Shown here in pieces: positions 3,680-8,538 of a DNA stretch of 64,000 nucleotides. Numbering within the stretch: the stretch's first letter is position 1; each line of letters opens with the position of its first letter. Both the position numbers and the translations under genes were made by a program. Location of the stretch: assembly GCF_003334335.1 (NCBI RefSeq), contig NZ_QOWQ01000010.1; one strand, written 5' to 3'. Origin of the DNA: Escherichia coli (GTDB taxonomy: Bacteria; Pseudomonadota; Gammaproteobacteria; Enterobacterales; Enterobacteriaceae). A model generated the notes under the pieces. It worked only from the letters and a program-made list of their open reading frames with translations, did not search any database and had not been told where the DNA came from.

Positions 3680-5647
3680 ATGGGTATTTTCTCCATTGCT
3701 AACCAACATATTCGCTTTGCGGTAAAACTGGCGACCGCCATTGTACTGGCGCTGTTTGTTGGCTTTCACTTCCAGCTGGAAACGCCACGCTGGGCGGTAC
3801 TGACAGCGGCGATTGTTGCCGCCGGTCCGGCCTTTGCTGCGGGAGGTGAACCGTATTCTGGCGCTATTCGCTATCGTGGCTTTTTGCGCATCATCGGCAC
3901 ATTTATTGGCTGTATTGCCGGACTGGTGATCATCATTGCGATGATCCGCGCACCATTATTGATGATTCTGGTGTGCTGTATCTGGGCCGGTTTTTGTACC
4001 TGGATATCCTCGCTGGTACGAATAGAAAACTCGTATGCGTGGGGGCTGGCCGGTTATACCGCGCTGATCATTGTGATCACCATTCAGCCGGAACCATTGC
4101 TTACGCCGCAGTTTGCCGTCGAACGTTGTAGCGAGATCGTTATCGGTATTGTGTGTGCGATTATGGCGGATTTGCTCTTTTCTCCGCGATCGATCAAACA
4201 AGAAGTGGATCGAGAGCTGGAAAGTTTGCTGGTCGCGCAATATCAATTAATGCAACTCTGTATCAAGCATGGCGATGGTGAAGTTGTCGATAAAGCCTGG
4301 GGCGACCTGGTGCGACGCACCACGGCGCTACAAGGCATGCGCAGCAACCTGAATATGGAATCTTCCCGCTGGGCGCGGGCCAATCGACGTTTAAAAGCGA
4401 TCAATACGCTATCGCTGACGCTGATTACCCAATCCTGCGAAACTTATCTTATTCAGAATACGCGCCCGGAATTGATCACTGATACTTTCCGCGAATTTTT
4501 TGACACGCCGGTAGAAACCGCGCAGGACGTCCACAAGCAGCTCAAACGCCTGCGGAGAGTTATCGCCTGGACCGGGGAACGGGAAACGCCTGTCACCATT
4601 TATAGCTGGGTCGCGGCGGCAACGCGTTATCAGCTTCTCAAGCGCGGCGTTATCAGTAACACAAAAATCAACGCCACCGAAGAAGAGATCCTGCAAGGCG
4701 AACCGGAAGTAAAAGTAGAGTCAGCCGAACGTCATCATGCAATGGTTAACTTCTGGCGAACCACACTTTCCTGCATTCTGGGCACGCTTTTCTGGCTGTG
4801 GACGGGCTGGACTTCCGGCAGTGGTGCAATGGTGATGATTGCGGTAGTGACGTCACTGGCAATGCGTTTGCCGAATCCACGCATGGTGGCGATCGACTTT
4901 ATCTACGGGACGCTGGCCGCGCTGCCGTTAGGGCTGCTCTACTTTTTGGTGATTATCCCTAATACCCAACAGAGCATGTTGCTGCTGTGCATTAGCCTGG
5001 CAGTGCTGGGATTCTTCCTCGGTATAGAAGTACAGAAACGGCGACTGGGCTCGATGGGGGCACTGGCCAGCACCATAAATATTATCGTGCTGGATAACCC
5101 GATGACTTTCCATTTCAGTCAGTTTCTCGACAGCGCATTAGGGCAAATCGTCGGCTGTGTGCTCGCGTTCACCGTTATTTTGCTGGTGCGGGATAAATCG
5201 CGCGACAGGACCGGACGTGTACTGCTTAATCAGTTTGTTTCTGCCGCTGTTTCCGCGATGACTACCAATGTGGCACGTCGTAAAGAGAACCACCTCCCGG
5301 CACTTTATCAGCAGCTGTTTTTGCTGATGAATAAGTTCCCAGGGGATTTGCCGAAATTTCGCCTGGCGCTGACGATGATTATCGCGCACCAGCGCCTGCG
5401 TGATGCACCGATCCCGGTTAACGAGGATTTATCGGCGTTTCACCGACAAATGCGCCGCACAGCAGACCATGTGATATCTGCCCGTAGCGATGATAAACGT
5501 CGTCGGTACTTTGGCCAGTTGCTGGAAGAACTGGAAATCTACCAGGAAAAGCTACGCATCTGGCAAGCGCCACCGCAGGTGACGGAACCGGTAAATCGGC
5601 TGGCGGGGATGCTCCATAAGTATCAACATGCGTTGACCGATAGTTAA
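3680..5647 (+). CDS. aaeB: p-hydroxybenzoic acid efflux pump subunit AaeB (FUSC family)
   Basis: 655-aa polytopic membrane ORF, 6 bp after aaeA; followed by an intrinsic terminator. Confidence 0.9.
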
Positions 5648-5650
5648 GTC

Positions 5651-5680
5651 AAAACCGACGCCAAAAGCGTCGGTTTTTTC
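5651..5680 (+). terminator. intrinsic terminator of the aaeXAB operon
   Basis: aaaaccgacgc-caaaa-gcgtcggtttttt: GC hairpin followed by a T-run, 4 bp after the aaeB stop. Confidence 0.8.
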
Positions 5681-5738
5681 ATGGCTATACTTAGCGATGC
5701 ACGGCAGAACTCGCCGCGAAACGTGACGGTGGCAACAG

Positions 5739-6011
5739 ATGAATATTTATACCTTTGATTTTGATGAGATTGAGAGTCAGGAGGATTTTTATCGTGACTT
5801 TAGCCAAACCTTTGGTCTGGCGAAAGATAAGGTACGCGATCTCGACTCACTATGGGATGTGTTAATGAACGATGTCCTGCCGCTACCACTTGAGATTGAA
5901 TTTGTTCATCTGGGAGAGAAAACGCGTCGCCGTTTTGGCGCGTTAATATTGCTGTTTGATGAGGCAGAGGAAGAGCTGGAAGGGCATTTGCGTTTTAATG
6001 TTCGTCATTAG
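5739..6011 (+). CDS. yhcO: barstar-like (ribonuclease-inhibitor family) protein YhcO
   Basis: 90-aa acidic ORF ([27 protein letters not shown]...); sits between aaeB and yhcN as in E. coli. Confidence 0.8.
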
Positions 6012-6012
6012 C

Positions 6013-6040
6013 GCAAAAAAAAGCCCCCGAACCGGGGGCA
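6013..6040. terminator. terminator between convergent yhcO and yhcN (canonical mainly for the minus strand)
   Basis: aaaaaaaa-gcccccg-aac-cgggggc: 7-bp GC stem; the A-run on plus gives a U-run after the hairpin on the minus strand (yhcN). Confidence 0.7.
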
Positions 6041-6066
6041 ATATCGTCGGACAAGACGATGAGGGT

Positions 6067-6330
6067 TTATTTGTACAGTTCAGCCGTAGCGTGCCAGGTG
6101 TCACCGCTACGAGCTTCAGTAATCTGGTAGGCCGTTGCGCCTTTCTCTTCCGCTTTTTTGTTCAGCATTTCACGCATATCCATTGGCGAAGACGCCACAC
6201 CACTTACGGATACGGTCCCGATTGCTTCACGATTTTGTGCTTGTGCAGCATCAATGGAGTCGGCAGCGAATGCACCGAAAGAGAGAACAGAAAGTACGCT
6301 TAATGCAGCAACAGTGGTTTTGATTTTCAT
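6067..6330 (-). CDS. yhcN: periplasmic stress-induced protein YhcN (DUF1471 family)
   Basis: 87-aa product from the internal ATG (MKIKTTVAALSVLSVLSFGAFA signal peptide) of track ORF 6067..6381. Confidence 0.8.
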   Translation of the reverse strand: MKIKTTVAALSVLSVLSFGAFAADSIDAAQAQNREAIGTVSVSGVASSPMDMREMLNKKAEEKGATAYQITEARSGDTWHATAELYK

Positions 6331-6694
6331 GATTTTTACCTCGACATAATCTTTTAGCTGGGCCTTTGTTTCGTGACCCATATCACAAAATCAAGTATAC
6401 GCTAATTATTGAGCTAATTAATACCGCGCTAACTGTTTCAGTTGATACTAAGTGTTAAAAATGTGAATTTTAATAACAAAAAAGAATTAAAAATACGGTT
6501 ATTTATCGTTAATTCTAGTTTTTTCAATTAGATAATGAATTTTGCATAATGTGCTTTTTTTACCTTATGTATTCATTGTGTGAATGACATGTCGCAGTAA
6601 AACGCACTATTCGTTAAATTAATCGCAGGGGAAAGCAGGGGGTTGAGAGGGATAAGCAACATTTTCCCCGCCGTCAGAAACGACGGGGCAGAGA

Positions 6695-7168
<474 letters not shown>

Positions 7169-7188
7169 TCACCCGATATGGTGGTTGA

Positions 7189-7227
7189 TACAACATTATT
7201 GTGCATACAGATGAATTTTTATGCAAA
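7189..7227. promoter_or_regulatory. ARG-box-like operator in the argR promoter region (putative autoregulation site)
   Basis: gaTGAATttttATGCAaa resembles the ARG box consensus tnTGAATwwwwATTCAnw, with a weaker adjacent half-site; lies 25-60 bp upstream of the argR start. Read by eye only. Confidence 0.35.
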
Positions 7228-7524
7228 CAGTCAGCCCTGAAGAAGGCTGAAATAATGTTATGAAAGAGCGGGATTTTATCAAATTTCGTTATTGAGAAAC
7301 ATGCCTGCGTCACGGCATGCAAATTCTGCTTAAAAGTAAATTAATTGTTATCAAATTGATGTTGTTTTGGCTGAACGGTAGGGTATATTGTCACCACCTG
7401 TTGGAATGTTGCGCTAATGCATAAGCGACTGTTAATTACGTAAGTTAGGTTCCTGATTACGGCAATTAAATGCATAAACGCTAAACTTGCGTGACTACAC
7501 ATTCTTGAGATGTGGTCATTGTAA

Positions 7525-8538
<1,014 letters not shown>

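Follow-up and report, generated by a model that had tools for sequence, protein, structure and literature searches.

The Escherichia coli gene yhcO encodes a barstar-family protein at a locus where related Enterobacterales carry a barnase-barstar pair

INTRODUCTION

The complex of barnase with its inhibitor barstar is among the best quantified protein interfaces. Barstar contributes residues 29 to 46 together with E76 and E80, and its largest energetic hot spots are D39 and D35.

Three kinds of described systems are close to the subject of this report. Barstar itself is the intracellular barnase inhibitor of Bacillus amyloliquefaciens (PDB ID 1BRS and 1BTA). The same domain family is found as Imm-Barstar in polymorphic toxin systems, with the same concept of blocking a barnase-fold toxin (PMC3482391, PMC10469887), and there the immunity genes adjoin their toxin in variable islands. 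Orphan immunity genes, which are inhibitor genes that have no cognate toxin gene, are typically accessory, clustered, and strain variable. To these we add the barnase-barstar pairs of Enterobacterales, whose barstar gene is the positional ortholog of yhcO and lies 3' of tldD, aaeB, or an aldehyde dehydrogenase gene.

YhcO of Escherichia coli shares its fold, length, and acidic character with Bacillus barstar and retains the equivalents of D35, W38, D39, E76, and E80, but the two proteins are only 27% identical, yhcO has no adjacent barnase gene, and inhibition by YhcO is putative. Unlike Imm-Barstar genes, yhcO is a fixed core gene with housekeeping neighbors, and its surroundings contain no toxin, repeat, or cassette. 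It resembles orphan immunity genes in lacking a cognate toxin gene, but it is universal in E. coli, syntenic throughout the family, and RpoS regulated, and it very probably arose by deletion of its own partner. The gene, its assignment to the barstar family, and its crystal structure are already public and are not presented here as new. What we add is a concrete history: sister families still have the complete pair, a precise deletion has removed the RNase gene in Enterobacteriaceae, and the same loss is under way in two other species. We also show how sharply 67 partnered barstars differ from 10 orphans at four positions of the interface.

RESULTS AND DISCUSSION

Family and fold of YhcO

The yhcO reading frame begins at the first ATG past a stop codon in a 64,000-nucleotide stretch of an E. 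coli contig (NZ_QOWQ01000010.1), referred to here as the window. An initial annotation made from the letters alone had described the product as an acidic, 90-aa barstar-type protein, and this description holds. YhcO has 21 Asp and Glu residues compared to 10 Lys and Arg residues, with a pI of 4.48, and the Pfam profile PF01337 (Barstar) matches residues 1 to 81 with an E value of 2.4e-9; nearly all YhcO homologs carry a precomputed PF01337 assignment. The sequence is 100% identical to PDB ID 2CX6, an entry for "hypothetical protein yhcO" that is titled "ribonuclease inhibitor Barstar," and the Salmonella ortholog (PDB ID 5F4C) is 77% identical.

Comparison of a predicted structure with barstar, the check proposed in the initial annotation, gave a barstar fold, with a TM score of about 0.80 and an rmsd of 2.0 Å. 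An AF2 model calculated from an alignment of 40 homologs has a pLDDT of 96 and superimposes on the 2CX6 crystal structure with a TM score of 0.99, and on the barstar chains of barnase-barstar complexes (PDB ID 1BRS, 1B3S, 1X1W, and others) with TM scores of 0.78 to 0.81 and an rmsd of ~2.0 Å. More than 20 barstar chains match the model structurally with a probability of 1.00. A single-sequence AF2 model was dropped in favor of the alignment-based one, as it had a pLDDT of 68.6 and an rmsd of ~10 Å to 2CX6. Given the agreement with both the crystal structure and the barstar chains, we regard the barstar α/β fold, with three parallel strands alternating with helices, as established for YhcO.

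The possibility that YhcO is no barstar at all, and that a small acidic protein happens to look like one, draws on the weak direct similarity to Bacillus barstar (phmmer E values of 0.06 to 1; 27% identity by BLASTP) and on the absence of an NCBIfam model that matches YhcO. Such a chance likeness is hardly credible, and we consider it already refuted by the Pfam match, by the structural match just described, by an unbroken series of homologs that adjoin barnase genes, and by the invariance of the DxxxD motif. In addition to the profile and the fold, YhcO has the features expected of a barstar in its DxxxD motif with W38 and in the acidic patch of E76 and E80 (barstar numbering). It lacks two features that all partnered members of the family share, namely, a barnase gene next to it and the canonical form of the contact loop.

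The YhcO subfamily is narrow, since an exhaustive, profile-free search returned only 112 cluster representatives. Within the window, yhcO is the single segment matched by a barstar-family HMM (E=3.5e-35). PADLOC defense-system models gave no family at an E value of ≤0.01 for either YhcO or a Serratia barnase homolog. The homologs also include a 255-aa protein with a C-terminal barstar domain, encoded on a contig of just 1.5 kb whose context is uninformative.

Gene neighborhood and transcription signals

The order of genes in the window is tldD, aaeR, aaeX-aaeA-aaeB, yhcO, yhcN, argR, mdh, degS, and degQ. The initial annotation correctly named aaeB as the upstream and yhcN as the convergent neighbor; the coordinates of these genes and of the signals around yhcO are collected in Table 1.

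Table 1. Features of the yhcO region, in window coordinates
Feature	Position	Strand	Basis
aaeB, upstream neighbor of yhcO	3680..5647	+	
aaeB intrinsic terminator, 11-bp stem and U tract	5651..5679	+	RNA fold, -16.7 kcal/mol, z=-5.1
CTATACT, candidate sigma-S type -10 element (C at -13 plus TATACT), putative yhcO promoter	5685..5691	+	sequence reading
GGTGG, Shine-Dalgarno-like element, 6 nt 5' of the yhcO ATG	5728..5732	+	sequence reading
yhcO CDS (90 aa plus stop), barstar-family protein	5739..6011	+	ORF, Pfam, PDB identity, RefSeq annotation
K31-V32-R33-D34 codons, α1-α2 contact loop (F-G-x-N in paired homologs)	5829..5840	+	column comparison
D36-S37-L38-W39-D40 codons, helix α2, DxxxD acidic plug (barstar D35, W38, D39)	5844..5858	+	
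yhcN intrinsic terminator, 7 G-C pairs, minus-strand T8 tract	6015..6039	-	terminator scan, folds
Second hairpin, possible yhcO terminator	6042..6061	+	terminator scan, fold
yhcN, convergent neighbor, DUF1471/YdgH-BhsA family stress protein	6067..6330	-	

An intrinsic terminator directly behind aaeB separates yhcO from the aaeXAB operon. It was missed by a consensus terminator scan, apparently because its stem runs into the T tract. With so strong a hairpin and U tract ending transcription after aaeB, yhcO is likely to have its own promoter. The CTATACT sequence a few nucleotides farther on is a candidate for its -10 element, of the sigma-S type, and would fit the reported RpoS dependence of the gene (PMC2907692).

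The minus-strand terminator that the initial annotation placed immediately downstream of yhcO is real and belongs to yhcN. Its stem, read on the minus strand from 6039 to 6023, is GCCCCCGGTTCGGGGGC, followed by TTTTTTTT; on the plus strand, the hairpin lies 12 nt past the yhcO stop codon. Farther along the plus strand is a second hairpin, followed by GGGUUUAUUU, that may terminate yhcO transcription. The segment from 6010 to 6070 folds with -23.3 kcal/mol (z=-3.4), and an Rfam search over positions 5000 to 7600 gave no match. The genes yhcO and yhcN share a hairpin, and both are acid responsive. A functional link between them was considered and set aside, since yhcN is missing from the ancestral context of the pair described below, where darP is found in its place; for the same reason we take the adjacency of yhcO and yhcN to be a product of rearrangement.

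Synteny and the origin of the orphan state

A scan of one genome per species yielded 80 loci with a YhcO homolog. Their analysis by tblastn and by extraction of ORFs placed an ORF of the barnase family 4 to 50 bp upstream of the homolog, on the same strand, in 66 of them. The first two distant homologs looked up were each found immediately 3' of a PF00545 (Ribonuclease) gene, and one of these distant loci reads yhdP, CN-hydrolase, tldD, RNase, barstar.

The loci of Enterobacterales fall into a small number of arrangements. In Serratia, Yersinia, Rahnella, Rouxiella, Edaphovirga, and Hafnia, the locus reads tldD-aaeR-aaeXAB-(aldehyde dehydrogenase)-RNase-barstar-darP-pmbA. A shorter version, tldD-RNase-barstar-darP, is found in Xenorhabdus, Photorhabdus, Proteus, Providencia, Arsenophonus, Pragia, and Budvicia. 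The RNase is missing from the yhcO locus of Escherichia, Salmonella, Citrobacter, Enterobacter, Lelliottia, Pseudenterobacter, Kosakonia, Klebsiella, and Erwinia mallotivora, where the order is tldD-aaeR-aaeXAB-(aldehyde dehydrogenase)-yhcO-yhcN-argR-mdh, so that the downstream neighbor is yhcN rather than the darP of the pairs. The aldehyde dehydrogenase gene is orthologous in RNase-bearing and RNase-less loci (69 to 95% identity), and in the orphan genomes that still have it, its alignment stops ~30 to 55 bp before the yhcO start. The upstream arrangements of Yersiniaceae and Hafniaceae, on the one hand, and Enterobacteriaceae, on the other, differ by the RNase gene alone.

Sequence identity follows the same pattern. 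The orphans have mean identities of 53% to Yersiniaceae, 50% to Hafniaceae, 41% to Morganellaceae, 36% to Erwiniaceae pairs, and 34% to Bacteroidota, which is the order that would be expected under vertical descent. The paired barstars of Yersiniaceae are 46 to 63% identical to YhcO, and their C-terminal half is almost identical to it.

The RNases of the pairs look like active, secreted enzymes in need of an intracellular inhibitor: the barnase residues K27, D54, E73, R83, R87, H102, and Y103 are kept in 67/67 full-length partner RNases, and 62/67 have an N-terminal hydrophobic leader. The E. coli lineage, in contrast, has no RNase gene at this position. Two species outside Enterobacteriaceae show the same loss in progress. 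Edwardsiella ictaluri has a 48-aa C-terminal fragment of barnase (HMM E=4e-23) and Hafnia psychrotolerans a barely recognizable barnase remnant (HMM E=0.003), each beside an intact barstar gene.

The initial annotation had mentioned a remnant of a lost toxin-immunity pair as one possible origin of yhcO. The synteny strongly supports this origin: relatives keep the series aaeB-(aldehyde dehydrogenase)-RNase-barstar, from which only the RNase is missing in Enterobacteriaceae. We therefore conclude, with high confidence, that yhcO is what survives of an ancestral barnase-barstar pair after loss of the RNase.

Search for a barnase-type RNase in E. coli

No barnase-like ORF was found in the window by tblastn with Bacillus barnase and two enterobacterial homologs as queries. 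An HMM built from the 67 partner RNases and run with filters off over all 1,845 stop-to-stop segments of the window gave a best match at noise level (E=0.074, 9.5 bits). Neither tblastn nor this HMM detected a barnase remnant in the window, the 91-bp spacer between aaeB and yhcO included. The HMM is sensitive enough for the purpose, since it detects decayed barnase remnants in other genomes. The statement of the initial annotation that no barnase-like ORF is visible near yhcO is thus supported by both methods.

That annotation also called for a search of the full genome, which we carried out in part, the protein-level search being that of the 64-kb window and the chromosomes being covered at the DNA level, with low power for a diverged gene. 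A blastn search of 5,426 complete E. coli genomes with the Serratia RNase-barstar DNA matched only in the barstar part, at yhcO. There was no Escherichia record among the tblastn matches of the Serratia RNase in 72,556 plasmids, and tblastn for barnase in 50,697 phage records returned nothing. Among the best 120 of 563 barnase homologs, no Escherichia, Salmonella, or Klebsiella names occur, and no N1/T1/barnase-family RNase is known among the catalogued ribonucleases of E. coli K-12.

These searches bear on the idea of a split pair, in which a cognate barnase-type RNase would be encoded elsewhere in the E. coli genome with YhcO as its unlinked inhibitor. With no barnase-family match in the window, in Escherichia plasmid records, or in phage records, and with yhcO the only place matched at the DNA level in the 5,426 genomes, we consider such an arrangement highly unlikely.

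The RNase-contact interface

We aligned the interface region of 10 orphans and 67 partnered homologs with that of Bacillus barstar, whose sequence was verified against PDB ID 1BTA and 1AY7. The acidic plug is retained throughout. D36 and D40 of YhcO are invariant in 40 homologs; the D, W, and D of the plug are present in 10/10 orphans, and among the paired proteins each D is found in 67/67 and the W in 63/67. All 10 orphans have D36, W39, D40, E75, and E79. In barstar numbering, the residues common to orphans and paired proteins are L34, D35, L37, W38, and D39, plus E76-A77 and the region of E80.

The residues around the plug differ between the two groups. F30, G31, N33, and A36 are each present in all 67 paired homologs, whereas in the orphans F30 is replaced by K (10/10), G31 by V (10/10), N33 by D (8/10), and A36 by S (10/10). 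T42, found in 57 of the 67 partnered proteins, is mostly lost in orphans, all of which have one extra residue after position 44. The YhcO of the window accordingly has K31, V32, D34, S37, and M43 at the canonical loop positions, and compared to Bacillus barstar itself, it has D, K, V, D, S, and M in place of Y29, Y30, G31, N33, A36, and T42, with one residue inserted after 44. The motif FGxNLDALWD..TG of the Enterobacterales pairs corresponds to KVxDLDSLWD in the E. coli lineage. The Klebsiella ortholog shares the K, V, S, and inserted residue, yet N33 and T42-G43 are retained in it, indicating that remodeling of the loop is not uniform across the orphan clade. The recently orphaned barstars of E. 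ictaluri and H. psychrotolerans retain the canonical FGxNLDALWD..TG.

With the hot spots D35 and D39 kept and other interface residues replaced, the orphan clade has preserved the electrostatic plug and changed its surroundings. The orphan-specific loop residues have remained constant while synonymous sites became saturated. Their fixation may go back to chance and owe its persistence to constraints of the fold, with no adaptation to a new partner. As the RNase-contact loop has been rebuilt, it would be unsafe to treat YhcO as a canonical barnase inhibitor; as the strongest hot spots of barstar are retained, it may have kept some affinity for enzymes of the barnase type or even bind them well.

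Conservation, selection, and expression

All of the 5,426 complete E. coli genomes searched contain a 1.3-kb region with yhcO, annotated there as "yhcO: barstar family protein," and the reading frame is undisrupted in each of the Enterobacteriaceae genera examined. Between genera, synonymous sites of yhcO are saturated (pS, 0.59 to 0.89) and dN is 0.12 to 0.33. Where it could be measured, the median dN/dS is 0.119 for orphans compared to 0.114 for paired barstars. Purifying selection on yhcO is thus as strong as that on paired barstars, and the gene is not decaying. Matches to YhcO labeled as plasmids were considered as evidence for mobile copies and rejected, as they are mislabeled chromosomes or large chromosome-derived records.

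Published transcriptomes give a picture of regulated expression. In O157:H7, yhcO is among the RpoS-dependent genes (PMC2907692); its expression rises on entry into stationary phase (PMC2241611) and is induced after a rapid acid shift (PMC2270276). It is activated by LldR, in a paper that gives the function of yhcO as unknown (PMC10272880). The open-access papers that name yhcO and coli contain no functional study, phenotype, or biochemistry, those on E. coli and Salmonella being transcriptome or genome surveys, and a literature search for "orphan barstar" gave transcriptome listings at most.

This silence of the literature, together with the loss of the RNase partner, might suggest that yhcO is a functionless leftover that has yet to decay. 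The selection data already contradict that reading, which we consider very improbable: dN/dS is about 0.12 across genera with saturated synonymous sites, the ORF is intact in all of the Enterobacteriaceae genera surveyed, the gene is present in all 5,426 E. coli genomes, and expression is regulated by RpoS, acid, stationary phase, and LldR. The barnase genes that did lose their function, in E. ictaluri and H. psychrotolerans, have visibly decayed. Continued function of YhcO under selection is, in our judgment, quite probable.

Possible targets of YhcO

The account that we favor, and that we regard as probable on balance, is that YhcO is the retained inhibitor of an ancestral pair, that the RNase was deleted, that the contact loop was rebuilt, and that the target shifted. 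The ancestral pair would have combined a barnase-family RNase that is secreted with a barstar that stays in the cytoplasm, both inherited vertically, and most other Enterobacterales still have the complete pair at this place in the chromosome. The RNase gene was very probably deleted cleanly in the ancestor of Enterobacteriaceae, and the inhibitor gene kept as a transcription unit of its own, whose expression belongs to the stress response of RpoS, acid, and stationary phase. YhcO most likely still works as barstar does and would be a 1:1 stoichiometric blocker, with the acidic face of helix α2 inserting into the basic active-site cleft of a cytoplasmic RNase-like protein.

Since the loop that is invariant in barnase-linked homologs was rebuilt and then fixed, canonical barnase may well no longer be what YhcO binds; a shift of target away from the canonical secreted enzyme is plausible, falling just short of what we would call probable. 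Barnase in the cytoplasm kills laboratory E. coli unless barstar is coexpressed (PMC8403359), and Salmonella strains with RNase effectors have dedicated barstar immunity genes (PMC10469887). The need for a cloned barstar and the existence of these dedicated genes agree with a shifted target but do not prove it, and the failure of chromosomal yhcO to protect may reflect just a low, RpoS-dependent expression during growth.

The main rival to the account given above, and the second possibility named in the initial annotation, is that YhcO, acting as barstar does, has been kept to neutralize the barnase-family RNase toxins of competitors, such as T6SS Rhs effectors and CDI toxins. Several observations are in keeping with such a defense. 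The plug residues that touch the catalytic site of barnase are retained, barnase homologs occur in many Enterobacterales that share habitats, and barnase-domain toxins are common in T6SS, T7SS, and other polymorphic toxin systems, where they are paired with Imm-Barstar (PMC3482391). Salmonella SPI-6 encodes PAAR-Rhs effectors whose C-terminal domain is a microbial RNase, together with immunity genes of the barstar type (PMC10469887). However, the orphans differ at all four of the interface positions at which the 67 barnase-linked barstars never vary, a change that one would not expect if the selected target were still a canonical barnase domain, and E. coli is not protected from cytoplasmic barnase, as noted above. 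Expression of yhcO is RpoS dependent rather than constitutive. The dedicated immunity gene of the Salmonella Rhs-RNase strains likewise speaks against a protective role for YhcO; yhcO is at its syntenic locus in the Salmonella genomes examined here and presumably in those strains as well.

The genomic setting also differs from that of an effector-immunity island. No Rhs, CdiA, VgrG/PAAR, or toxin cassette marks the locus, yhcO belongs to the fixed core genome and has housekeeping neighbors whose order is conserved across Enterobacteriaceae, and its presence in all of the complete E. coli genomes is the opposite of an accessory, strain-variable distribution. Being core, syntenic, and outside islands, yhcO is unlike a typical orphan immunity gene of polymorphic toxins, and we consider defense against injected RNases rather unlikely as the reason for its retention.

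A more specific version of the account that we favor, with a shifted target, is that YhcO has been retargeted to an endogenous basic RNase or RNA-binding protein of Enterobacteriaceae, within the RpoS, acid, and stationary-phase response. The acidic plug would have been kept and a clade-fixed contact loop gained, with K31, V32, and S37 and one inserted residue. We offer this only as a tentative possibility; if true, it would mean that a toxin inhibitor has been domesticated into a housekeeping regulator of RNA metabolism.

Whichever target it has, yhcO is a testable case of the fate of an immunity protein after loss of its toxin, whether that fate is drift, a role as guard against foreign toxins, or a new partner. 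Because the barnase-barstar interface has been quantified so well, the natural K/V/D/S variant should be easy to test. Where barnase is employed as a lethal or counterselection gene, it may be of practical interest that E. coli hosts have a diverged, stationary-phase-induced barstar homolog of their own.

Gene order around the barstar gene
Gene order breaks directly after the barstar gene. In Yersiniaceae, Hafniaceae and Morganellaceae this gene is followed by darP-pmbA, versus yhcN-argR-mdh in Enterobacteriaceae; a rearrangement breakpoint falls at the very locus from which the barnase-family RNase was lost. In Salmonella, Klebsiella, Enterobacter and others, yhcN is accompanied by a tandem paralogue, yhcN-B; E. 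coli has a single copy. The yhcN-argR spacer beyond it is 313 bp long and AT-rich and gave no family matches in an Rfam search; the region's one sigma-70-like consensus match lies within it. Positions are collected in the table.

Loss of the RNase
Erwinia mallotivora (locus L018 of our scan of one genome per species) has the orphan order of the Enterobacteriaceae type, aaeB-aldehyde dehydrogenase-yhcO-yhcN-argR, with 63% identity. Either the RNase deletion is older than the split between Erwiniaceae and Enterobacteriaceae, or the locus was transferred. The other matches in Erwinia, Pantoea and Mixta (L047, L050, L053, L075, L079, L081, and L088) are barnase-barstar pairs that are less closely related and have other surroundings, with neither tldD nor aaeB within 7 kb.

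Decay of the RNase gene beside an intact barstar gene is seen in two species. In Edwardsiella ictaluri the barnase is reduced to a 48-residue C-terminal fragment, and in Hafnia psychrotolerans there is only a faint remnant; both barstars keep the canonical FGxNLDALWD..TG motif. These are independent events, and they are natural intermediates of orphaning of the E. coli type.

The aldehyde dehydrogenase gene and the yhcO promoter
In Citrobacter, Enterobacter, Lelliottia, and Kosakonia a gene for a 508-residue aldehyde dehydrogenase separates aaeB from yhcO; in Yersinia, Rahnella, and Hafnia the gene stands between aaeB and the RNase and barstar genes. E. coli, Salmonella, and Klebsiella lack it. 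Salmonella arizonae retains roughly 60 bp from the 3' end of the gene directly upstream of yhcO. Because the E. coli CTATACT, a candidate sigma-S-type -10 element, aligns to this remnant, the yhcO promoter may derive from a fragment of the aldehyde dehydrogenase gene. The Yersinia pestis copy of the gene is broken into two open reading frames and is apparently a frameshift pseudogene.

Features compared at the yhcO locus (L-numbers, homologue loci, each with its own coordinates) and chromosome-like PLSDB records
Feature	Sequence	Position
Gene-order break	window	6011-6067
Gene-order break	L021-L036	around 7270-7400
yhcN region(s)	L012	7336-7966
yhcN region(s)	L090	4327-4955
yhcN region(s)	window	6067-6330
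Barnase fragment, E. ictaluri	L063	6849-6995
Barnase remnant, H. psychrotolerans	L042	6783-6992
Aldehyde dehydrogenase gene	L013	5428-6954
Aldehyde dehydrogenase gene, Y. pestis	L033	4818-6316
Split ORF, 387 aa	L033	4818-5981
Split ORF, 112 aa	L033	5978-6316
Matching aaeB-yhcO spacer, E. coli	window	5648-5738
CTATACT	window	5685-5691 (+)
yhcN-argR spacer	window	6382-6694
Sigma-70-like match	window	6521-6550 (+)
Chromosome-like record	NZ_OL790696.1	
Chromosome-like record	NZ_CP134663.1	
Chromosome-like record	NZ_CP141089.1	
Chromosome-like record	CP125156.1	
Chromosome-like record	NZ_OL790811.1	

Doubtful database records
Several PLSDB records of 4 to 5 Mb, listed there as plasmids, are evidently chromosomes, and nearly all "plasmid" matches of yhcO and the Proteus barnase come from them. 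A 422-bp contig (L019) of a Hydrogenophaga intermedia assembly bears the 3' end of aaeB together with a yhcO at 71% identity; the contig is almost certainly a contaminant of enterobacterial origin in a betaproteobacterial assembly. Three 137-residue variants from metagenome assemblies (P0029, P0031, and P0032) are 99 to 100% identical to YhcO over residues 1 to 80, differ in the tail, and have an additional precomputed Pfam match, PF04397; a frameshifted or chimeric gene call probably accounts for each.
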